From positions 1-37,531 of the IMG/VR virus record IMGVR_UViG_3300044534_000100: a DNA stretch of 37,531 nt; one strand, given 5' to 3'. Source of the stretch: a virus. Every line of letters starts with the position of its first letter. Position 1 is the stretch's first letter. A program made the translations under genes and the position numbers. This document shows positions 1 through 37,531 of the stretch, one piece after another. Below the pieces are notes generated by a model. It made no database searches and was not told where the DNA came from. It saw only the letters and a program-made list of their open reading frames with translations.

Positions 1-127
1 AACTTTCCACCGTTCTTAGCGGTGTCATAAATCTTTTGAGCAGCGAACTTGTCACGATGAGGAACAGTAATTAACCGTTGATGTTCACGAACAACGTTAG
101 CCACTTGGTAGGCACCATTTTCGCTCA
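1..127. repeat. Exact 127-bp copy of 37405..37531, a terminal overlap showing a circular or circularly permuted assembly
   Basis: Base-by-base comparison of both ends shows they are identical. The reading frame of the capsid gene continues seamlessly across the junction. Confidence 0.95.
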
Positions 128-404
128 TATCAAGTTGATCAAGGTCATAACCAATCCAATCTTCTTGGGTGAGGTCAAACGTTTCCTTTTCAACGTTTAC
201 ATTATGACGAACATTATCACCATTCCGGTTATACTTTTCAGCTTCAACAAATCCTGAAAGCTTGTTTACTCGTACGGTGTGAACTCCGGTAAAATCAGCA
301 GCGGTGATTGACTTGGCGCCACCAGTTAATGGTTGCCAAATTTGGGAATCAGCAGCATATTCTTCATCAATTGTATTTAAGTCTTTTTGATCTAGTGCAA
401 TCAT
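1..404 (-). CDS. Major capsid protein, 5' part; the gene continues across the circular junction into 36942..37404 (288 aa in total)
   Basis: ATG at 404 is preceded by an AAGGAA-type RBS. My translation [26 protein letters not shown]... runs to position 1 without a stop and is in frame with ORF 36942..37508. The gene follows the scaffold gene. Confidence 0.8.
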
Positions 405-422
405 TTATTTTTCCTTCTTTCT

Positions 423-995
423 TTAATCCTTAGCTTCTTGCATTCGTTGAGCGATATTATTCACGATGTCATCACTGCCAGAATTGTCATCGTTACCGTT
501 ATTAAACTTACCGCCTAATGAAATATTCGGCTTAGGCTGTTCAGCGTCAAAAAGATAACTATTATCTTTCTTAACGGCATCAATTTGTTCTGATAAGCCG
601 GTCAATGAGCCATCTTTATTCACGCTCACTTTGTCAGTGTCGATTAATGGAAGCACGGTCTTAATGTTCTTCGCTTTGGCATCACGCAACGCACCTTCAA
701 TTTTGAAGCTCTTAATTTGGCTTGCTAGTTGGTCTTGGTACTTTTGCGTTGCCGTTTTGTTGTCCTCTTGTAACTGCTTAATCTGGTCCTTTAATGCATC
801 GTTATCCTTAACGGACTTCTTCAAGTCGTTTAACTGATTGTCACGGTCGGTAATTTGCGATTGCAGGCCATCACGCTCATTAGTTAAACTTGTAATCTTT
901 TCATTCAATGCATTAATATCTTTCCCATTTTGGCTCATTACAAAATCAATCTGAGTATCATTAAGTCCTTGTTCCTTTAAATCGTCACGCTTCAT
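423..995 (-). CDS. Capsid scaffolding protein (GP20-like coiled coil)
   Basis: N-terminus MKRDDLKEQGLNDTQIDFVMSQNGKDI and a long charged coiled coil. The gene lies immediately upstream of the capsid gene. Confidence 0.75.
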   Translation of the reverse strand: MKRDDLKEQGLNDTQIDFVMSQNGKDINALNEKITSLTNERDGLQSQITDRDNQLNDLKKSVKDNDALKDQIKQLQEDNKTATQKYQDQLASQIKSFKIEGALRDAKAKNIKTVLPLIDTDKVSVNKDGSLTGLSEQIDAVKKDNSYLFDAEQPKPNISLGGKFNNGNDDNSGSDDIVNNIAQRMQEAKD

Positions 996-1093
996 TGCGA
1001 TCTCTCCTTTACGTTAGTTGTTTACGGAGTTACGAACTCCGAGAATTGATTGCATAACAAAAGAGCAGTTTTACGACTTACTCGGGTCGAATA

Positions 1094-2245
1094 TTAATTA
1101 ACAATTTTTTCTCTATCGTAATCACGGGTAAGAATTGGCGTTTTATGATCTTCGTTTGTCTGCTTAATAAACTCTCGCATATTCGCCTGTCGTGCCCGTA
1201 TCAGCGTTTTACACTTGGTTACTTGTTCTTCATCGCCTAGTTCTTTAGCAGCTACTAGACGGTGCTTGGCGTCCCTGATAGCCCGTTCACGTGCTCGTTG
1301 TTTCTGAACTATCTTCCCATTCTTAACCGCCTGTTTAGGGTCATATTGAGGTTGATGGTTTACGTTAACACCCGGAACAAATGGAAAAAGTCGATGATGG
1401 CAATTAATGCCCATCGTTCCTGCTGGTGTTCCATAGCCGTGATTATAGATACTATCGTACTTATCGTTATAATCAGGGCTTTCAGGTGGAACGATATTAA
1501 CAACGTGACCTTGAATCCAAGCACAAGCCGATCGACTGTTAGGGTGGCTACTCATCAACGCTAAGTGCATATCAAAGTCCTTCATTCTGCTAAGTCGCAA
1601 GTCGTTGTAAGTCCGATTAACTGTCGTATTGATTACCATTCGAGAATAACCCTCAATGCTCCAGTTATGACCAGCTTTATCAACAAGTCTAGTAGGCAAG
1701 CCACGATCAACTGCACGATAGACCGCACTTTCGACAGCTTTTTGGTGAGTCATTAGACCAGATACTGTTGCCAATGTTGATTCAGTAAGTATCTGCCGAT
1801 ATACCCTTGTTGTTGCCGTAGCTCCATAATTACGGCTGATTAATGATTCATTAATGTTATTGTTCAAATCAGACCAAGTTTGGCTCACAACAGCTGTGAG
1901 AGCGTTCTGGGTGTCACTAGATACCGGCTCTTTTCGCCCTGTTACCTCTTGCAGCTCGCCATCAACTTCATTGATTACTTGAATACCATGAAACTTAATC
2001 AAGTCCTTAATCGCATCTTCACTCAAGTCGTCAGCGTGTGCCATTAGCTTCATAGTCTGTTGATTGAGTTTCCCCATTTGTGCTAATTGCTTAGCTTGCC
2101 AAGTAACGACATCATCTTTACTAACGTGTTTGTAATCTCCAGCCTTTAACGTGTCAATAATCGTGTTAAATATCTGTGATTGCAATTGTTCATAGAGGTC
2201 AATAATTCTATTACCGGCTTTTTGGAAATCATCACGTGCTGTCAC
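1094..2245 (-). CDS. Head morphogenesis / minor capsid protein (Mu F / SPP1 gp7-like)
   Basis: Follows the portal gene. Contains the conserved-looking C-terminal block GTMGINCHHRLFPFVPG. Confidence 0.65.
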   Translation of the reverse strand: MTARDDFQKAGNRIIDLYEQLQSQIFNTIIDTLKAGDYKHVSKDDVVTWQAKQLAQMGKLNQQTMKLMAHADDLSEDAIKDLIKFHGIQVINEVDGELQEVTGRKEPVSSDTQNALTAVVSQTWSDLNNNINESLISRNYGATATTRVYRQILTESTLATVSGLMTHQKAVESAVYRAVDRGLPTRLVDKAGHNWSIEGYSRMVINTTVNRTYNDLRLSRMKDFDMHLALMSSHPNSRSACAWIQGHVVNIVPPESPDYNDKYDSIYNHGYGTPAGTMGINCHHRLFPFVPGVNVNHQPQYDPKQAVKNGKIVQKQRARERAIRDAKHRLVAAKELGDEEQVTKCKTLIRARQANMREFIKQTNEDHKTPILTRDYDREKIVN

Positions 2246-2247
2246 GA

Positions 2248-3810
2248 TTAATCAGCTCCTACATCATTGTCACCATCAGGACTCTCGCTTTCCTCAAAGC
2301 TGTTAGACGTGTACTCCGGTTGCTCCTTTTGAACTTGTTGAAGCCATTGTTGAGCATCCTCTTCGCTTAGTCCCTCGTTACGAATCAAGAACTGCAATTT
2401 AGGCATAACACCAGCAGCAACAAGCGCTAAGTCGTTAGTTTGTTGCTTATCCTTATCAACAAAAACGCCATCGTTAAAGTGAACACTTAATCCTAATTCA
2501 TCGTCAGCATTAAAATTGCATCTTGCTTGACCATCGCTGAAGAACTCTGGTGTACTAGCAACTTCTAAAATAGCTGTAACTAATTGATTAAGAAACAGTT
2601 CAACTTGTGTCAGATAGCTTGAACGGGTTTGATAAGTGGTTGAGTTCTCGCTAACGATTTCAGTAGCAGTTTTGACTGACTGACCATCAAACGAGAATGT
2701 ACCGGCACTAAGTCCGGTCTGTTCTTCAAACTCACGTAAAAAGTAATCGATAGCGTCCTTATATTGCTGAGTTCGAATATCACTAGTTAAGTCGGTAATA
2801 TTCATATTGTCAGCATCCCCATAGAACTGTTCGTACACATCCATGTCAGGGTCAAACATGAGTGGATGTGTTTCATCATCATTAGTAGTATTGCCGAAAT
2901 TATTACCCGGTCTTAGCATTTCAGCAGGAACCGCAATGCGGCGTTTCCCCATTTTGATTTCATGTACAAACTCATCGTGGGTAGTGTTAATCGCATTAAT
3001 AATATTCTTTGAATTATCAACAATTCCCATACCAAGCGGACTATCTAGGTCTTTGTTATTTGCTCCCGGTGTACGGAAGTAAGCAAACAAGGGCTTTTTA
3101 ATAATCCCGTTATTAAAGGTGATAGTTGGCTGCATCTTTGGATAGAGAGTGCTAAGCGGTACAGATTGACCGACAACATCTCGTTCAGTTGAGCGATATA
3201 ATTCGTTAGTAATTTGATAGGTATTAGTGTCTAGCCACTGATGAAACTCTAATAAGGTGTAATAAACTAATTGCTTGTTTTCGGTTCGAGCTGAACGACT
3301 AGCAAAAACACATTCACTGATATTATCAGTGTTGCTATGTAGCGGGTAAAACTGATCAGCATTAGCCCAGGCAATACGAATATTATCTTGGTCATCAACA
3401 TAAGGACGTGCGGCTAATCCACCTAGCGCAACACCCGTTTCCAAATGTTGCTCAAATTGCAAATTGAAATGGTTATCATCAATAATCTGACTAAGCAGTT
3501 CATCGTTATCATGATCCTTTAACGATATTTCGCATTGTTCATTAAAGATGATTGAAGCCAGTCGTTTAGCTGATAACTTAGTAATGTTTAGCGTATTCAT
3601 TTTGCGGTGTCGCTTATGCCCGTAGCTGTTTCGATACCAGACAACAGGTAAATCGTCACGATAATACTTTTTGGCTTCTTGAATACGAATGTACTCTGAT
3701 TCAGCAATTGCTACCCGTTCATCATCAGTGATTTTAGTTAAACTTTTTGTCATACCTAACTTAGCGCCTCCCTTCCATATAAGATTCTTCAGTGTTGTTA
3801 GAAAGCTCAT
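2248..3810 (-). CDS. Portal protein
   Basis: About 520 aa, lying downstream of the terminase. The start is refined to the ATG at 3810, which is preceded by AGGAGGTG. Confidence 0.8.
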   Translation of the reverse strand: MSFLTTLKNLIWKGGAKLGMTKSLTKITDDERVAIAESEYIRIQEAKKYYRDDLPVVWYRNSYGHKRHRKMNTLNITKLSAKRLASIIFNEQCEISLKDHDNDELLSQIIDDNHFNLQFEQHLETGVALGGLAARPYVDDQDNIRIAWANADQFYPLHSNTDNISECVFASRSARTENKQLVYYTLLEFHQWLDTNTYQITNELYRSTERDVVGQSVPLSTLYPKMQPTITFNNGIIKKPLFAYFRTPGANNKDLDSPLGMGIVDNSKNIINAINTTHDEFVHEIKMGKRRIAVPAEMLRPGNNFGNTTNDDETHPLMFDPDMDVYEQFYGDADNMNITDLTSDIRTQQYKDAIDYFLREFEEQTGLSAGTFSFDGQSVKTATEIVSENSTTYQTRSSYLTQVELFLNQLVTAILEVASTPEFFSDGQARCNFNADDELGLSVHFNDGVFVDKDKQQTNDLALVAAGVMPKLQFLIRNEGLSEEDAQQWLQQVQKEQPEYTSNSFEESESPDGDNDVGAD

Positions 3811-3835
3811 CGTGTCACCTCCTAAAACTAAGGCA

Positions 3836-3862
3836 TAAAAAAAGACCATAAAATATATGGTC
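3836..3862 (-). terminator. Intrinsic terminator between the HNH gene and the portal gene
   Basis: 8-bp stem AGACCATA/TATGGTCT with a 4-nt loop, followed on the minus strand by a U-run (A-run 3837-3842 on plus). Confidence 0.6.
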
Positions 3863-3887
3863 TAATTTTCTTTAATTATTTTTTCAA

Positions 3888-4514
3888 TTAGTAGATTGCG
3901 GGCTTGGTGTGCTTCATGCTCTGTATCATAAACACTAGTATGATACTTCTTACCCATAAAGCTGGCTTGCCACAAATAATACATTTTCTTGTTTCATTAT
4001 CTTTTTTCGTTTTTCTTCGATATGTGGACTGGCAATTAGGAGAACAAAACTTTGTCCTATTAAACGCTGAGCGAAACACTTTGCCACACACCACGCAACG
4101 CTTTATATACTTTTTCTTAAAATGTAATCCTTTATGGATTTTCGAGCTAGCAATTCTTCCTTGCTTTGATTTATGCCATTCTGCTGCCGCAGCTCTTGCT
4201 TTATCATTCAAATTCCTATTCCAAATCGGCAACATTCTTTCATAATCATGTTCTTTATGATATGCCAGATGTTCTTTTCTGGTTAAGCATTCTAAGTTTT
4301 CAATTTCATTGTTATCTTTATTTTCATCTATATGATTGATTTCCATTCCAGACGGAATAGGCCCATTATGCTTTTGCCAAACATAAACATGCAATCGAAT
4401 GCGAGTAGTGCCTATCTTCTTTGTTGAAAGATAATAACCCGTTTTAGGATCTTTTCTGAATTTGTAGCCATCGATAAATCCGTATCCATCTTTATAATGA
4501 ACTTCGCCCATCAT
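3888..4514 (-). CDS. HNH homing-type endonuclease with C-terminal CxxC...CxxC zinc ribbons
   Basis: Motif EINHIDENKDNNEIENLECLTRKEHLAYH, plus CVVCGK..CSPNC..CIICGK. The insert is AT-rich and lies between terL and the portal gene. Confidence 0.75.
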   Translation of the reverse strand: MMGEVHYKDGYGFIDGYKFRKDPKTGYYLSTKKIGTTRIRLHVYVWQKHNGPIPSGMEINHIDENKDNNEIENLECLTRKEHLAYHKEHDYERMLPIWNRNLNDKARAAAAEWHKSKQGRIASSKIHKGLHFKKKYIKRCVVCGKVFRSAFNRTKFCSPNCQSTYRRKTKKDNETRKCIICGKPALWVRSIILVFMIQSMKHTKPAIY

Positions 4515-4530
4515 TATTCACCTCACATAT

Positions 4531-4539
4531 ATTGTAACA
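4531..4539 (-). promoter_or_regulatory. Possible extended -10 (TGTTACAAT) in front of the HNH gene
   Basis: The sequence is read on the minus strand. The leader would be very short because the SD GAGGTGA follows directly. Confidence 0.3.
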
Positions 4540-4564
4540 TAAATAATAGGTGTGTTCCTTGATA

Positions 4565-5875
4565 TTACCACTTCAATCCAAAATCTCTTTCATTATCGAC
4601 ACATAGGTACATAAACCCATCACAAGTATGGTCATCTTCCTTGATAACTTTAGGATCATCGCTCTGCAATGTTTTCTCATCCCACTGGTATTTCTCATGT
4701 TCCTTGATAAAGATCTCGTTCTCAGGGCGTTTCAGGTAGAAAAAGCGACCTTGTGCAAGTAAGTCCTGCACCCGGTCGATCATATCTACTTTCTTTAATT
4801 TCCTAACCTTATGCCAACGAATACCAAAGTCATTGTAAAACTGGTTATCCAATGCCCCTTCAGCAGAGTCCATAGTTAGCCGTGTGGGCTGTTTTCCGAT
4901 CCAGTTAGTGACTTTATCGATAAACTCTTTTAGATCCCTGGAAAGCTCACTCGGTGGCTTCTTGTGGGTCTTACCTTGTGGACTGTAGTAATAAGTATCT
5001 AGCAAGATTAAATTACCTTTCTTGGTCAATCCATAAGCACCACAAGTGGTTGCAGAAACTTCATGTCCCGTATCAACAGAATAATAAACATTAGTGATGT
5101 AATCATCTGTGGGTAATTTATCAATAGCTTGGAAGTTATCCATGTTATAGATATTAGTTCCAAGCCCGATAACTTCCCCAAGATACATCCAACGGTAATA
5201 GTCATAATTATTTTGCTTAACGGTATTGATTTCATCAATATAATCTTGTGACAAGATATTGGGAAGTGTGACGTCCTTATATGTAGAATGATCGACAAGC
5301 CAATTAGGCATCCCTTCTCGTTGTGTAGCCCATTCGTTAATCCATTCATAAGGATTTTTAGGCGGGTTGTAGCTATAATATGTAACAACGTGAGCGCCAG
5401 GTGGTAGCTGTTTACGAGTAAACGAGGCTCGTACCATATCAACCTCTTGCCAAGAATCAAACTCAGCTAATTCTTCAAACCAAAGATAACGTACATATCC
5501 ATGCGCTATAATCATTGATTTTAACTTTTGCGGGTCATCAACTCCGCTAAAATAGAAAGCCGTTCCGTTGCGTTTATCAACAATTCGATACGGTGATTTT
5601 TTGAACTCAAAAAGGCTATCTACATGCAACATGTAAATGGCCCATTTAATCTGTTCATAAACTGACAACTCAATCGTATTGGCGACCTTACGCATAATTA
5701 AAACGTTAGCCTGTGAATCCTGTAAAAAATCCATCACTAATTGAATACTAATTACAGAAGACTTAGTAGATCCACGCCCACCTTTTAGAACCTTATTTAA
5801 GCAATGAGAAAACAGTATTCGATCAAAATGAGGGCATATCATGTTGTCAGCATTAATTGTTATTTGCTTCTTCAT
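4565..5875 (-). CDS. terL: Terminase large subunit
   Basis: Walker A motif GGRGSTKS, a length of 436 aa, and a position between terS and the portal gene. Confidence 0.85.
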   Translation of the reverse strand: MKKQITINADNMICPHFDRILFSHCLNKVLKGGRGSTKSSVISIQLVMDFLQDSQANVLIMRKVANTIELSVYEQIKWAIYMLHVDSLFEFKKSPYRIVDKRNGTAFYFSGVDDPQKLKSMIIAHGYVRYLWFEELAEFDSWQEVDMVRASFTRKQLPPGAHVVTYYSYNPPKNPYEWINEWATQREGMPNWLVDHSTYKDVTLPNILSQDYIDEINTVKQNNYDYYRWMYLGEVIGLGTNIYNMDNFQAIDKLPTDDYITNVYYSVDTGHEVSATTCGAYGLTKKGNLILLDTYYYSPQGKTHKKPPSELSRDLKEFIDKVTNWIGKQPTRLTMDSAEGALDNQFYNDFGIRWHKVRKLKKVDMIDRVQDLLAQGRFFYLKRPENEIFIKEHEKYQWDEKTLQSDDPKVIKEDDHTCDGFMYLCVDNERDFGLKW

Positions 5876-23127: not shown

Positions 23128-23502
23128 TTAGTTACTTCCTTTCTTTAATTCCGTAATAGTTGCCTGCTGGGTCATAATCATCTTTTGCATTTGCGTCAGG
23201 TTCGCCTGTTGCGCCATGACCGTCTTTTGCAACTGAGTAATATTGGCTTGTTGAGCCATTAATAATTGTTGGCCCTCACTTGGTTTAATGTTAGCTTGTT
23301 GCTGGGCGATTGATGCCGCTACTTGTTGTTGGAATGTTGCATTATCCATTCCGCCAACCCACTCAGTACCATTGAACTTTTGATAGCTCTTAGTTGGATC
23401 TGGCGCTACTGTTGTCGTATATGGTGGTAAATTATTGGCATCAGCAACTTCAATTTCAGCTAATTGATACCCGTAATGTTGATCGTACATATATGCTTTC
23501 AT
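23128..23502 (-). CDS. Tail-fibre-associated protein with Q-rich heptad repeats (XkdW-position)
   Basis: Contains repeated QQANITQLQK/QQANLTQMQK. Called from its position. Confidence 0.55.
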   Translation of the reverse strand: MKAYMYDQHYGYQLAEIEVADANNLPPYTTTVAPDPTKSYQKFNGTEWVGGMDNATFQQQVAASIAQQQANIKPSEGQQLLMAQQANITQLQKTVMAQQANLTQMQKMIMTQQATITELKKGSN

Positions 23503-23519: not shown

Positions 23520-23945
23520 TTATTGTTCGTACTTAGTTTGTACTACTGTCCATGTGTCCCATCTAGCTCCCGCACGAATGCGCATGAACATCCAGCCACC
23601 AGTAGAACAAATTAACTGTACTTTAGAAGTAGTATCATTTCCCAACTGGAGAATCCAACCCCATTCAGCAGTGCCTTGTATTGCTTTAGGCCAATTACTA
23701 TTCGCTGGCACCTTGCTGTCTTCCCAAAAGCCAAAGTTATGCGCTCCCATAGTAATGTTATTAAGATCGGGATTATCTTTCCCAATAAAGTTGCCAATTT
23801 GCAGTGCATTACTATTCAGCGTGCCTAATTGTTTGTCTTGGTCAATATTCTCTTCAAGTAGTTTGTTAAAGTTTTCAGCAATCTTTTCTGCACCTAAGTC
23901 CATACCAGTAAAGATGCTTGCAATATCTGTTTCTGCTATTGCCAT
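23520..23945 (-). CDS. Distal tail/fibre-region structural protein, function unknown
   Basis: 141-aa ORF in the baseplate/fibre block. Confidence 0.6.
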   Translation of the reverse strand: MAIAETDIASIFTGMDLGAEKIAENFNKLLEENIDQDKQLGTLNSNALQIGNFIGKDNPDLNNITMGAHNFGFWEDSKVPANSNWPKAIQGTAEWGWILQLGNDTTSKVQLICSTGGWMFMRIRAGARWDTWTVVQTKYEQ

Positions 23946-23951
23946 TAATTA

Positions 23952-24410
23952 TCATTCCTTTCCCTTATAGTAAAGAGCCTTGTAGCCTTCAAAGACTCCA
24001 AAGCTCTTGTCTGGTAGTTGTTTCATTGTTAAGCCATCGCTCATCAAGTTAAAACTGTTAGTGATCTCAATCGTGCTCGTCCCGTTAGCCGAGCTAATTA
24101 CCTTTGCTGGGATAATTTGTCGATTGCCACCGCCGAACATACCCTTGGGTTCCGTCCCAATCGGGACTAATCCTAAGGCATATTCAAGGTAGACTAACGA
24201 CACCGTTGCTCCAGTAGTTAAGCTAACTGGCACCTTAACTTGAATTCCGCGAGTTTTAACCGTCAGGCTCGCCCTTGGACTTTCACGGAAGCCATTAAAG
24301 GACGCCACTGACAAGTTATAAGCAGTGTTGGGAGTTAATCCCGTTACTTGATACTGCTTGTTGTTCACCGTGCCAATTAATTGATCACCGTTTCGGATTC
24401 GATACTGCAT
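23952..24410 (-). CDS. Tail-fibre-region protein beginning with FN3 strands C-G
   Basis: Sequence QYRIRNGDQLIGTVNNKQYQVTGLTPNTAYNLSVASFNGFRES. The ATG is in frame with the upstream ORF, after TGA TGA TGA. Confidence 0.7.
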   Translation of the reverse strand: MQYRIRNGDQLIGTVNNKQYQVTGLTPNTAYNLSVASFNGFRESPRASLTVKTRGIQVKVPVSLTTGATVSLVYLEYALGLVPIGTEPKGMFGGGNRQIIPAKVISSANGTSTIEITNSFNLMSDGLTMKQLPDKSFGVFEGYKALYYKGKE

Positions 24411-24416
24411 TCATCA

Positions 24417-24926
24417 TCAGTCCCAACTTAAATCAAGCGAGTTTGGTGTCACGTTAGTTGCCGCTAAGTTGGTCACGTTAACCAGCGCTTCGTAAACCGT
24501 TAAGCTAATCACGTTAGAGACCTTTTCGCCAATCTTTGCGGTAATAGTTGCCGTACCTGGAGCAATCGCTTTGACATTCCCCGCACCATCAACCGTTGCC
24601 ACTTGCGTGTTTGATGAGGTCAATACTGCTGCACCGTCAGTTTCATTAGCCGGCGTAATTGTAACGGTAACTTTAGCCGTTCCGCCAACTTCAAGACTAG
24701 TCTTGTCAATTGCCAGCGTAATCCCTTGAACTGGAATCGCTGATGTTTTGACCGTGATCACGTTCGACTTAGCACTTTCCCGCAATCCATTGTAGGAACT
24801 TACAGCGAAGCGATAAGTTGAGTTAGCTGTTAACCCCGTAACGGTGTATTCTTTCTTGTTCTCAACTTCGGCAATCTTCGTCAGTTCGCCGTCCGTCCCA
24901 ACGCCTTGATAGATATAGAATTTCAT
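24417..24926 (-). CDS. Tail-fibre-region protein: partial FN3 (strands C-G), then Big_2 Ig-like domain, then FN3 strands A-B
   Basis: Partial FN3: KFYIYQG...YTVTGLTANSTYRFAVSSYNGLRES. Big_2: LEVGGTAKVTVTITPANETDGAAVLTSSNTQVATVDGAGNVKAIAPGTATITA. The C-terminus is NLAATNVTPNSLDLSWD. Confidence 0.75.
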   Translation of the reverse strand: MKFYIYQGVGTDGELTKIAEVENKKEYTVTGLTANSTYRFAVSSYNGLRESAKSNVITVKTSAIPVQGITLAIDKTSLEVGGTAKVTVTITPANETDGAAVLTSSNTQVATVDGAGNVKAIAPGTATITAKIGEKVSNVISLTVYEALVNVTNLAATNVTPNSLDLSWD

Positions 24927-24929
24927 TAA

Positions 24930-26339
24930 CTAATACCTCCATAATAATCTTTGTGTGTGTTCATCAATGTAGACCGCCCGGAGGTCGGTTGGACTTGTTG
25001 GCTTCGAGAAGTAACCCGTGTTCGGTGATAGGTAAGAATTACCTTCTCCATCACCTGCTTGGGCTTTAGCGTCATCAATCGGTATTCCCAAGTCAACCTT
25101 GATCGTCCGGTTACCATCAATCAGGTACCAAGCACCAAATTTATAGTGCGGTACGGCATCAAGATAGAAGTTCCGGGGAATCTTAACCTTAATTGTGTTT
25201 GCATCGGGGTATTCCGCAATGCAATTAATCAGTTTGGTATTTGTTTGCCCGAAACCATGACTAGTCTTTCCTAGGCCATCCCGTTCAGTTCCGATAGCGT
25301 CCTCGTAGTACAAAACCGCTGGACGTAGTGGGTGTTCGCATTGATTATGCTTAATTTCAATTGTGTACCCGTAGAGGAAGTCTTCTAAGCTGTCCGCACT
25401 CAACAAGGATGAGTTCCGTTCCGCAACTAAGCCCATATTGGTATTAATGCTAATTACGTTCTGCTCGTCTGGCGTTTCGTCCTTGTGTTTGGCTCGAATA
25501 TTCCAATAAGCCCCGTGACCATCATCGTAATTATCCCAGCCGTGCGTGATTGCAAGGTCACCATCTATTAATGCTGTGTAATTCTGCATTGCATTAACAG
25601 TGGCAAAGTGGAATGGTCTGTCATGAAATTGTGCTTGTTTGAGAATCTCTTGAATCTGATTTGCCATTGTTAGTAATGATGAATATTTCATCATCAATCC
25701 TTCTTTAGGATCATCAACAGCGTTAAGCGCATCTTGCAAGGATTGCTTATAATTTGCCAGCCATCCCAAAAAGTCTGTTTTCGTACTATCGCCAAGTTCA
25801 GTGATTGTTTTGGTAGTATCATCAACCAACTTTTGGATTTGTTGAGTATCAACATCAGCTTCATCTTGAAGCTTCTTCAAAATATCGTTGAACTCATCAA
25901 TAACCGACTTAGCATGTTCCCCCATCCGAGCGTAGAAATTGCTTCCCATAACTACTAATAAGATGTTAACGGTTGATACAATCTTGCCGTCAGGACTAAT
26001 AAAACTAAAGTAGGCCTGTTCCCATTGACCATCACATTGGAAAATGTTTGCGTCAAAGTAAAGGGTAATTCGCCCGGTCTTAATCATATCAAGCTGTTGT
26101 GAATCGTCCATCTTCATATATGACCGAAAATCGTTGTGCTGAAAGTCGGTACCTTGAAACAGGACACGCCAACCAGTCATATCTTGCGGAAGTGAATTAG
26201 AATACACCCATAGCTTAATATAACTATCAACGTCACCAACACGTCCCTTGAACTTATCCCTAATATCAATCGTTTCATCTTGATCACGTAATAAGTCTAC
26301 CGGAATATATTGATTTAATTTTGCTAATTGTGTTGCCAC
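24930..26339 (-). CDS. Baseplate upper protein (BppU-like N-terminus) ending in FN3 strands A-B
   Basis: The N-terminal region resembles BppU_N. The C-terminus is PTSPTDLRAVYIDEHTQRLLWRY. Confidence 0.6.
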   Translation of the reverse strand: MATQLAKLNQYIPVDLLRDQDETIDIRDKFKGRVGDVDSYIKLWVYSNSLPQDMTGWRVLFQGTDFQHNDFRSYMKMDDSQQLDMIKTGRITLYFDANIFQCDGQWEQAYFSFISPDGKIVSTVNILLVVMGSNFYARMGEHAKSVIDEFNDILKKLQDEADVDTQQIQKLVDDTTKTITELGDSTKTDFLGWLANYKQSLQDALNAVDDPKEGLMMKYSSLLTMANQIQEILKQAQFHDRPFHFATVNAMQNYTALIDGDLAITHGWDNYDDGHGAYWNIRAKHKDETPDEQNVISINTNMGLVAERNSSLLSADSLEDFLYGYTIEIKHNQCEHPLRPAVLYYEDAIGTERDGLGKTSHGFGQTNTKLINCIAEYPDANTIKVKIPRNFYLDAVPHYKFGAWYLIDGNRTIKVDLGIPIDDAKAQAGDGEGNSYLSPNTGYFSKPTSPTDLRAVYIDEHTQRLLWRY

Positions 26340-36730: not shown

Positions 36731-36954
36731 TACTTACCACCACCGTTAACTGCATTGAGCAAATCATCCTTGCTCATTGTTGAAGTGTAAGTCAAGCCGT
36801 GAGCATCCATATAAGCCTTAATTTGATCTACTGTTTGAGCAGTCGTTGGCTTTACACTACCCTTTGGATCAAAAGCTGGGACTGATTCCCCGCCTTGATT
36901 AGATGGTGAAACATTTGCCGTTCCACTATCAGTTGACGGGGTTACGCTTTTGGG
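36730..36954 (-). CDS. -1 frame C-terminal extension of the major capsid protein (72 codons) reached via slippery heptamer C CCA AAA; ends in a HeH/SAP-like motif
   Basis: The heptamer lies at 36948..36954 (minus strand), two codons before the 0-frame TAA. The -1 frame stays open to the TAA at 36730..36732. It has no ATG, GTG or TTG in its first 46 codons. Its tail reads [29 protein letters not shown]. Confidence 0.6.
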
Positions 36955-37531
36955 GAAGCTGCTACATAAATAGCCTTCTTGGCATTGTCAAATACTAGGA
37001 TGTCGTAATATGACAATCCCTTAATGGTTGTCCGATAGCCCGACCGGTCAGTAGAAGCATCGAGAACATCGACAGTATCGTACTTAACGATTGGCGCTAA
37101 TGCATAAAGTGGTACTGCCATAAAGTTAACGTTATCAGAAATAGTTAGTCCTTGAATCCGGTCCTTGGCACAAGTAAGAATTGGAACACCACCATCAAGT
37201 TGACCTACCCGACGGTCAATCCCGTTAATTTGCTGAGTGTTAGTAGAGAAGTTTTTAGTAACACCCTTAGCGTTCTTTAATGCCCGGTAATAACCAGCAG
37301 AAGCAAAGATAACATAACCACCAGGAATTTCATTATCAATCATGTATTGCTCAAGGTCATCATAGGCATCAAGAGCATTATCGCTAGTGATTGTATCAGT
37401 AACCAACTTTCCACCGTTCTTAGCGGTGTCATAAATCTTTTGAGCAGCGAACTTGTCACGATGAGGAACAGTAATTAACCGTTGATGTTCACGAACAACG
37501 TTAGCCACTTGGTAGGCACCATTTTCGCTCA
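36942..37531 (-). CDS. Major capsid protein, 3' part (37405..37531 duplicates 1..127)
   Basis: Same frame as 1..404, with TAA stop at 36942..36944. Its position between the scaffold and head-tail connector genes fits a capsid gene. Confidence 0.8.
37405..37531. repeat. Second copy of the 127-bp terminal overlap (equals 1..127)
   Basis: Identical to 1..127. Confidence 0.95.

Follow-up and report, generated by a model that had tools for sequence, protein, structure and literature searches.

The locus described here raises the question of why two FN3 domains are each divided between neighbouring genes at the same structural position. The locus lies in IMG/VR virus record IMGVR_UViG_3300044534_000100, of which positions 1 to 37,531 were analysed as one stretch of 37,531 nucleotides (the window). 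Three consecutive minus-strand open reading frames (ORFs) share one reading frame: p1 (24930..26339, 469 aa), a BppU-like baseplate protein; p2 (24417..24926, 169 aa), a connector; and p3 (23952..24410, 152 aa), a terminal protein. An earlier examination of the letters without database searches (the sequence-only reading) placed FN3 strands A-B at the C-termini of p1 and p2, and strands C-G at the N-termini of p2 and p3. It offered two explanations: either the pieces complete one another as separate proteins, or a stop codon is read through at a low level. When the sequence was re-read, the ORFs, their shared frame, their terminal peptides and both junctions were as described. In the following, an A-B piece is called a donor or tag, and a C-G piece an acceptor or dock. 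According to our analysis, tag and dock probably associate in trans, as separate polypeptides, and make up a single FN3 domain with no covalent link between them. This split-domain complementation, the first of the two explanations, accounts best for the data, and the evidence for it is mainly comparative.

Halved FN3 domains in the window

Donor 1 is located at 24933..25004 (minus strand, as are all the features of this module) and consists of KPTSPTDLRAVYIDEHTQRLLWRY followed by a stop. It was delimited by joining the peptides against Pfam fn3 and by a custom hidden Markov model (HMM) built from joined family members. Acceptor 1 occupies 24741..24926 at the N-terminus of p2 (custom HMM and AlphaFold2). 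Donor 2, VNVTNLAATNVTPNSLDLSWD followed by a stop, lies at 24420..24482 at the C-terminus of p2 (custom HMM and AlphaFold2), and acceptor 2 at 24246..24410 at the N-terminus of p3 (custom HMM and the profile of p3 homologues).

The gathering score of Pfam fn3 (PF00041) is 25 bits. On its own, p2 aligns through residues 21-58 to fn3 positions 43-82, and p3 through residues 3-45 to positions 36-79. The peptides joined at the first junction (J1) span positions 2-83 with 28.1 bits, which is over the gathering score. Those joined at the second junction (J2) span positions 3-79 with 41.5 bits, versus 24.4 bits for the half alone. The full fn3 profile is covered only when the halves are joined. The split is real, and the division into strands A-B and C-G proposed from the letters holds. 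Of solved FN3 domains, the profile of p3 homologues matches the C-terminal half only; in the 88-residue chitinase A1 FN3 chain, for instance, p3 residues 3-52 are aligned to residues 36-87.

The custom HMM was run over the whole window. It detected exactly two donors and two acceptors; the donors stop at model position 21 and the acceptors begin at 24. No further FN3 pieces were found in the window by this model. Donor 2 covers positions 1-21 (independent E-value, iE, 0.006), acceptor 1 positions 24-80 (iE 3e-23) and acceptor 2 positions 24-80 (iE 1.4e-19). Both donors carry the strand-B Trp (LLW and LSW), and the acceptors carry the strand-F Tyr motif (GLTANSTY and GLTPNTAY). The two tags are clearly unlike each other (PTDLRAVYIDEHTQRLLW versus NLAATNVTPNSLDLSW), and the two docks likewise differ.

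In the AlphaFold2 model of the p2 monomer, the mean predicted local distance difference test (pLDDT) value is 93.9. Acceptor 1 is modelled with strands 2-9, 16-22, 37-45 and 57-60, and the C-terminus with a hairpin 155-160 / 163-167 at pLDDT 93-94. A Foldseek search with this model gave generic tandem Ig/FN3 matches only. In the PDB sequence search, the matches of p2 are confined to its Big_2 domain. No solved structure of a split pair was found by PDB sequence searches with p1, p2, p4 (the gene following p3) and the p3 profile, which gave only Big_2 or generic FN3 matches.

The remaining parts of the three proteins are as follows. Residues 323-417 of p1 (25089-25373) correspond to Pfam BppU_IgG (PF18667, 111 bits). 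A Gly/Asp/Ser-rich linker, GIPIDDAKAQAGDGEGNSYLSPNTGYFS, connects this domain to donor 1 (25005..25088, read from the sequence). Between acceptor 1 and donor 2, p2 contains a Big_2 Ig-like domain (residues 65-134, 24525..24734, Pfam E = 3e-14). It belongs to the phrog_341 family ('major tail protein'), with E = 2.5e-33 and residues 2-147 aligned to profile positions 4-150 of 154. Behind acceptor 2, p3 carries a second copy of the p1 domain, BppU_IgG (residues 54-149, 23964..24251, PF18667 E = 3.5e-25, 88 bits).

Junctions

J1 (24924..24938) reads AGG TAT TAG TTA ATG: p1 ends in ...LLWRY and a stop, and p2 begins with KFYIYQG (MKFYIYQG with the initiator). J2 (24408..24422) reads GAC TGA TGA TGA ATG: p2 ends in ...NLAATNVTPNSLDLSWD, directly before J2 (...LDLSWD, then a stop), and p3 begins with QYRIRNG (MQYRIRNG). 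Both donors lie in the zero frame of p1 and p2, respectively. Neither a CCC_TAA nor an X_XXY_YYZ slippery motif was seen in the sequence of J1 or J2. The Trp-Arg codons of donor 1 supply GGAGG 9 nucleotides (nt) 5' of the p2 ATG, and it is plausible that they double as the Shine-Dalgarno sequence of p2, as had been suggested.

In the relatives of this locus (numbered L for loci and P for proteins), the junctions contain one to three stops, varied stop codons and spacers of 0-21 nt, in or out of frame. J1 has one or two stops and takes forms such as TAG GAC TAA ATG, or TAA plus 21 nt with GGGAGGGAG and then TTG. J2 takes forms such as TGA TGA GAA ATG, TAA TAG AGG TGA TTG CTA ATG and TAG TAA AGG GGT GAT TCC TTG, and most lineages have two or three stops there. 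An out-of-frame J1 occurs in L008, L009 and L019/L020, and an out-of-frame J2 in L010 and L025. Each downstream ORF has its own start codon, with a strong ribosome-binding site in many relatives.

In the window and in L001, L005, L007, L008, L009 and L019, the J2 spacers are 9, 15 or 18 nt, all multiples of three. Selection for an in-frame J2 was considered and set aside: 6/7 spacer variants are multiples of three, yet they form only two or three related spacer classes. An alternative genetic code was set aside in view of the two different stop codons, the double and triple stops and the out-of-frame relatives. Introns and inteins were set aside as well, the junctions being only 3-21 nt.

Conservation of the break

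Megablast of the region against phage genomes gave no match, and the relatives were reached by protein-level search. The search with p2 among representatives was dominated by giant multi-Big_2 proteins. Among the best 120 clusters (90% identity) listed, from Limosilactobacillus, the p2 homologues have 169 aa in 119/120 cases. The p3 homologues have 147-158 aa in 118 of the 120 clusters listed, and fusions to p2 are absent among them. Within p2, the donor segment shows 86% conservation, compared with 89-93% for the remainder of the protein, and the donor 2 Trp is kept in more than 95% of 119 p2 clusters. For donor 1, the peptide is conserved, and the DNA changes relative to the relatives are mostly synonymous.

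A census was made of 80 IMG/VR loci retrieved with the p2-family profile. All 81 FN3 hits (81/81) begin at strand C, not more than 20 residues after an upstream stop, and no intact FN3 was found among them; 44 donors were detected. In every Trp-bearing donor surveyed from phages of lactic acid bacteria (Limosilactobacillus, Ligilactobacillus, Lactobacillus and Latilactobacillus) and Enterococcus, the break lies 1-3 residues past the strand-B Trp. The donors of Staphylococcus and Brochothrix phages and of phiEf11 have no Trp, and the alignment puts their break at the same position. The split architecture is present in hundreds of independent assemblies and isolates. The break keeps one position while the details of the junctions vary around it, and the pattern is not one of error or decay. 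The sequence-only reading had argued against random decay from the window's two breaks, and this argument is strengthened by the conservation across many loci and host genera.

The numbers of donors and acceptors are balanced: 2/2 in the window and its relatives, and 1/1 in Saphexavirus and Brochothrix phages. In L010, the donor-bearing BppU gene and p2 are not adjacent, and homologues of p4 and p5 (the two genes that follow p3 in the window) lie between them. Acidic or Pro-rich tethers resembling the p1 linker precede the donors of phage K ORF95, the TPWB-09 tail protein and the L010 BppU.

In two Limosilactobacillus prophages (L003 4017-4479 and L006 826-1002), p3 is frameshifted into a 59-aa dock-only ORF and a 114-aa BppU_IgG ORF. 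Such damage is ordinary decay, and it strikes at a site that has nothing to do with the conserved break. The distal end of p3 varies: the protein has 334 aa with a large insert in L010 (4001-5005), and 226 aa with a long acidic Ser/Thr/Asp-rich insert in P0447. In some relatives (L019-L021, 3972-4568 region), a GDSL/SGNH hydrolase gene follows p3. The variable distal ends and the nearby hydrolase gene suggest a role of the p3 end of the chain in host interaction.

Separate virion proteins in Staphylococcus phage K

Phage K carries an analogous trio. ORF95 (210 aa) is an anchor with a tag and ends in ...PSAPKNVQVTPKEDGADVSAE. ORF96 (170 aa) begins with MAKLNLYKGNELL... (strands C-G), continues with Big_2 and ends in ...PADVTVEPGENSADITV. 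The third gene is a 75-aa ORF that encodes strands C-G and little more. The three ORFs lie in three different frames. Their database names are 'Ig-like protein', 'tail morphogenetic protein' and 'major tail protein'. The computed masses are 23,068.1 Da for ORF95 (Met removed), 17,717.2 Da for ORF96 (Met removed) and 7,817.4 Da for the 75-aa protein. Intact masses of 23,069, 17,718 and 7,818 Da were reported for purified kayvirus virions by matrix-assisted laser desorption/ionization time-of-flight mass spectrometry, and the small protein was covered to 96% by tandem mass spectrometry (PMC5923470). The agreement of computed and measured masses indicates that the phage K proteins are separate, virion-borne polypeptides and not readthrough fusions. 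As a five-strand protein consisting of the FN3 part only stays on the virions, it must bind something there. By analogy, these separate polypeptides fit split-domain complementation.

The globular N-terminal domain of ORF95 corresponds to residues 2-175 of PDB 9rox. The PDB entries 9rox and 9roz ('Putative Ig-like protein') contain 10 chains in the two entries, identical to ORF95 residues 2-175, and the linker and tag are absent. The missing part would fit an unresolved flexible tether, and a truncated construct would look alike. No paper linked to 9rox or 9roz was found in the literature search.

Staphylococcus prophage and plasmid proteins of 248-260 aa (P0270, P0275 and P0318 versus P0287, P0311 and P0322) consist of a dock and two Big_2 domains. 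They end in a ..ESDADVSAE tag or in a tagless Pro/Glu-rich tail. The tag could extend the chain or self-polymerise, and the Pro/Glu-rich tail could terminate it.

Frameshift-type access to the tag

Several phages use the major capsid or tail-tube protein as anchor, with the A-B strands encoded in another frame right after the anchor stop. A slippery motif with an other-frame extension at the anchor stop was read from the sequence in L014, L016-L018, L026, L053, L062, L067 and L068-L076. CCC_TAA (+1) occurs in five lineages (L014, L017, L053, L062 and L067), and its bearers include Staphylococcus TPWB-09, Enterococcus EG103P1 and L053/L054. G_GGA_AAG_TAA (-1) is present in Enterococcus Saphexavirus (TV16, L068-L076) and in Brochothrix BtpYZU02, and A_AAA_AAA (-1) in the phiEf11 capsid protein. 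These sites are putative frameshift motifs that match known ones in sequence; CCC_TAA (+1) is of the SPP1 gp17.1* type, for which the frameshift is confirmed and adds 87 residues (PMC6316719). Among related capsid proteins, one phage has a -1 site where another has a +1 site, and both would lead to the same tag.

The extensions have 20-28 residues, contain strands A-B only and end at a stop just past strand B. They are followed by a ribosome-binding site and then by the start of a strand-C-initial protein. The joined Enterococcus sequences score 43.7 and 45.8 bits at Pfam fn3 positions 2-82. The sequence-only reading had remarked that Ig-like domains on phage structural proteins are known to be appended by recoding. 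The remark is borne out in so far as frameshift-type sites exist in the relatives, but these would append only the A-B half and not a whole Ig-like domain.

phiEf11 (L026, NC_013696) has two such tags. At 3590-3710, the capsid protein would reach ...EAPKVESVIPTTDGASIVLS via a putative -1 shift at A_AAA_AAA, and at 5680-5745, the tail protein ends directly in ...SPSVESVTPTFDGASTELS. The capsid and tail tags, ..VESVIPTTDGASIVLS and ..VESVTPTFDGASTELS, have about 20 residues and are near-identical. There is a single acceptor gene, ORF16 (MVDTFKIYKG...). As two near-identical tags face one acceptor gene, one Ig-like protein may decorate both head and tail. For the phiEf11 capsid protein, which gives two bands, a -1 frameshift adding 21 residues has been proposed, with its purpose left unexplained (PMC5221750).

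Proposed mechanism

The tag would be a C-terminal hairpin of strands A-B, about 20 residues long, carried on a flexible linker and ending 1-2 residues past the strand-B Trp. The dock would comprise strands C-G and open with the initiator Met of a protein that is translated on its own. One protein would insert its tag into the incomplete beta-sandwich of the next, and a full FN3 domain would result. In the window, the chain would run from p1 (BppU) through p2 (FN3-Big_2-FN3) to p3 (BppU_IgG), and an Ig-like stalk at the edge of the baseplate would carry a second BppU_IgG module. Translation of p2 and p3 would begin at their own starts, through coupling or reinitiation where stop and start lie close together. 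Tags behind frameshift-type sites would be dosed sub-stoichiometrically. We infer both the physical complementation and the order p1-p2-p3 from sequence comparison. Split-domain complementation is best supported by the conserved break, the balanced counts, the non-adjacent genes of L010 and the presence of the same tag on different anchors.

Several points weigh against this reading. Donor 1 is weak in the custom HMM (positions 2-21, iE 0.87), and joining at J1 gives no gain in Pfam score (28.1 bits, versus 30.3 bits for p2 as a whole). In the AlphaFold2 model of the p3 monomer (mean pLDDT 88), the half-domain has pLDDT 93-96 without any donor; it is as confident as p2, and monomer models therefore cannot discriminate the pairing. 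The joined Staphylococcus and Brochothrix sequences are below the Pfam fn3 threshold, so that their FN3 assignment rests on homology to p2. In L001 (Latilactobacillus phage TMW 1.1381 P1, 3880-4000), donor 1, PKPTVEAPKFLVVSPVNATTTKLDWV, lies in the -1 frame and overlaps the end of a 267-aa baseplate gene, and no canonical slippery heptamer is present there. A mutation, a sequencing error or a non-canonical shift could account for this offset. Finally, p2 could close on itself or form a head-to-tail polymer, which leaves the order p1-p2-p3 tentative.

Judging from the relatives, Firmicutes phages appear to carry the module generally. Family members consist of a dock and one or two Big_2 domains, with or without another tag. 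The tag carriers are baseplate, capsid, tail-tube or other virion proteins, in which the tag is encoded directly or behind a frameshift-type site. We lean towards the view, held with somewhat more reserve than the pairing itself, that Gram-positive phages possess a portable split-FN3 tag-and-catcher system. An A-B hairpin of about 20 residues on any virion protein, be it capsid, tail tube, an ORF95-type protein or BppU, would recruit chainable, strand-C-initial Ig-like adhesin modules. For tags behind a CCC_TAA or G_GGA_AAG site, frameshift efficiency would set the number of copies per virion, and short unexplained frameshift extensions such as the 21 residues of the phiEf11 capsid protein would be docking tags.

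The feature is new as a variant of Ig-like virion decoration and of Ig-fold strand complementation. It is widespread, and current annotations conceal the architecture. No earlier account of phages with an FN3 or Ig domain in split form was found in the literature, which was searchable only in part. If the mechanism is correct, it explains how small products named 'Ig-like', 'major tail protein' or 'tail morphogenetic protein' are retained on virions without an obvious anchoring domain, and why some capsid and tail frameshift extensions are too short for a domain. Ig-fold strand complementation outside pili would gain a second natural example, with two strands and opposite polarity. Adhesin or receptor-binding modules could be swapped and chained without gene fusion, which bears on the evolution of host range in phages of lactic acid bacteria, enterococci and staphylococci. 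The tag would also be a small genetic means of decorating therapeutic or display phages.

Alternative explanations

The best surviving alternative, which we nevertheless consider unlikely, is a different wiring of the same pieces. The p2 tag would complete its own dock, giving a circularly permuted FN3 with a Big_2 insert, or the dock of another p2, giving a head-to-tail polymer, and the p1 tag would pair with the p3 dock. p2 does have both a dock and a tag, and both ends of its monomer model exceed pLDDT 90. The Staphylococcus proteins pair a KLNLYKG-type dock with a ..ADVSAE tag, like the ORF95 tag that is presumed to match the same dock type, and in TPWB-09 there is no second dock within the stretch examined. 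However, the tagless single docks of Saphexavirus, Brochothrix phages and phiEf11 can pair only with the anchor tag, and by homology the p2 dock should therefore pair with the p1 tag. Moreover, two distinct tags and two distinct docks suggest two specific pairs, and the gene order is usually p1, p2, p3.

It is also improbable, slightly more so, that the pieces are inert relics of gene fission or of module shuffling at recombination points in FN3-coding DNA, p2 and p3 being attached by other surfaces. In favour of this reading, a good many junctions have kept the frame, which fission by point mutation would lead one to expect. The p3 half-domain by itself is modelled with high confidence by AlphaFold2, and intact cis FN3 is known elsewhere (SPP1 gp17.1* with its 87 extra residues). 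Relics should be decayed or trimmed, whereas the tags are conserved as protein while their DNA changes synonymously. The single break position in 81/81 cases, the three different frameshift-type motifs that lead to tags exactly at anchor stops, and the virion-bound 75-aa protein of phage K, which is a dock and nothing else, likewise argue against relics. Real decay, as in L003 and L006, hits p3 at an unrelated position.

Split-domain complementation as separate proteins has further to be weighed against readthrough or another form of recoding, in which covalent p1-p2(-p3) fusions would be the functional form. Readthrough of the TAG was the second explanation of the sequence-only reading. The three window ORFs are in frame, most of the J2 spacers from seven lineages are divisible by three, and recoding-appended Ig-like domains are known in other phages. 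However, J2 has a triple TGA in the window and at least two stops in most relatives, and neither junction has a recognised slippery motif. The out-of-frame junctions (J1 in L008, L009 and L019/L020; J2 in L010 and L025) and the non-adjacent donor and acceptor genes of L010 speak against such a fusion by readthrough. The phage K analogues, in three frames, are separate proteins of exact mass. Readthrough is very improbable and is not supported.

In-frame stops within a recognisable domain are a classic sign of a pseudogene, but an error of sequencing or assembly, or a pseudogene that arose recently in a defective prophage, is practically excluded by the same architecture in hundreds of independent assemblies and isolates, by the own start codons with strong ribosome-binding sites in many relatives, and by lytic plaque-forming phages such as K that carry it.

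Comparison with known systems

Biologically, the closest system is the cis addition of the SPP1 gp17.1* type; mechanistically, donor-strand complementation in pili and the engineered split tag/catcher pairs are closest by analogy. The SPP1 type shares the decoration of capsid, tail-tube and baseplate proteins of Firmicutes phages with FN3 or Ig-like domains, and the window's relatives share CCC_TAA (+1) or X_XXY_YYZ (-1) at the anchor stop. In SPP1, however, a whole covalent FN3 of 87 residues is added, whereas here the anchor receives strands A-B only and the remainder comes from a separate gene. In the window itself, there is no recoding. Addition of cis Ig-like or FN3 domains by programmed frameshift is also mentioned for Listeria PSA and Lactobacillus A2, in works known to us through their citation in PMC5221750.

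The pilins of chaperone-usher pili lack the C-terminal G strand, receive one N-terminal strand and are assembled with a periplasmic chaperone and an usher. As in these pili, an incomplete Ig-like sandwich would be completed by the strands of a neighbour in a non-covalent head-to-tail chain. Here, by contrast, the dock lacks two strands, namely the N-terminal A-B hairpin, these would be supplied by a C-terminus, and assembly would be cytoplasmic; no chaperone-like gene was identified in the p1-p2-p3 module. The resemblance is one of mechanism only, an analogy and not homology. SpyTag/SpyCatcher was engineered from the split CnaB2 domain and is locked by an isopeptide bond. There also, a short peptide tag and an incomplete Ig-like domain rebuild one fold and join two proteins modularly; the split in phages, by contrast, occurs in nature, its tag is a hairpin of two strands, and nothing points to a covalent bond.

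The module resembles the BppU/BppA/BppL baseplates of the TP901-1 and Tuc2009 type in that BppU_IgG is present in p1 and p3, and p1 follows Dit and Tal. To our knowledge, no split FN3 connector is known for these lactococcal baseplates, and no paper describing one was found in the literature search. The phage K trio shares the series of anchor with tag, dock-Big_2-tag and dock, all three being virion proteins. It differs in the ORF95 globular domain, which serves as anchor where BppU does here, and in its Staphylococcus tags without Trp.

Genome setting

The window phage has close relatives among Limosilactobacillus prophages. The window encodes a terminase, an SPP1-type portal, a tape measure protein, Dit, a tail protein with an endopeptidase domain, BppU, a GH25 lysin and an integrase. 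Terminase, SPP1-type portal and minor capsid protein 2 genes lie at 1-5875, and more structural genes at 36942-37531, all on the minus strand. As head and packaging genes and other structural genes are located at opposite ends, the window looks like a circular permutation of a complete temperate siphophage genome of about 37.5 kb.

Dit, Tal, a small ORF and p1 follow one another in the order expected for BppU. p1 matches PHROG families of virion structural and minor tail proteins. In its homologues, BppU_N (PF10651) is on record, partly weak, as is BppU_IgG; in p1 itself, BppU_N gave no match in Pfam at E <= 1. Downstream of p3 are p4 (23520-23945, 141 aa) and p5 (23128-23502, 124 aa). No match of p4 was found in Pfam, PHROG or PDB. 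Its N-terminus, which we take to resemble that of lactococcal BppL receptor-binding proteins, is IFTGMDLGAEKIAENFNKLLEEN and is kept in L001 and L010.

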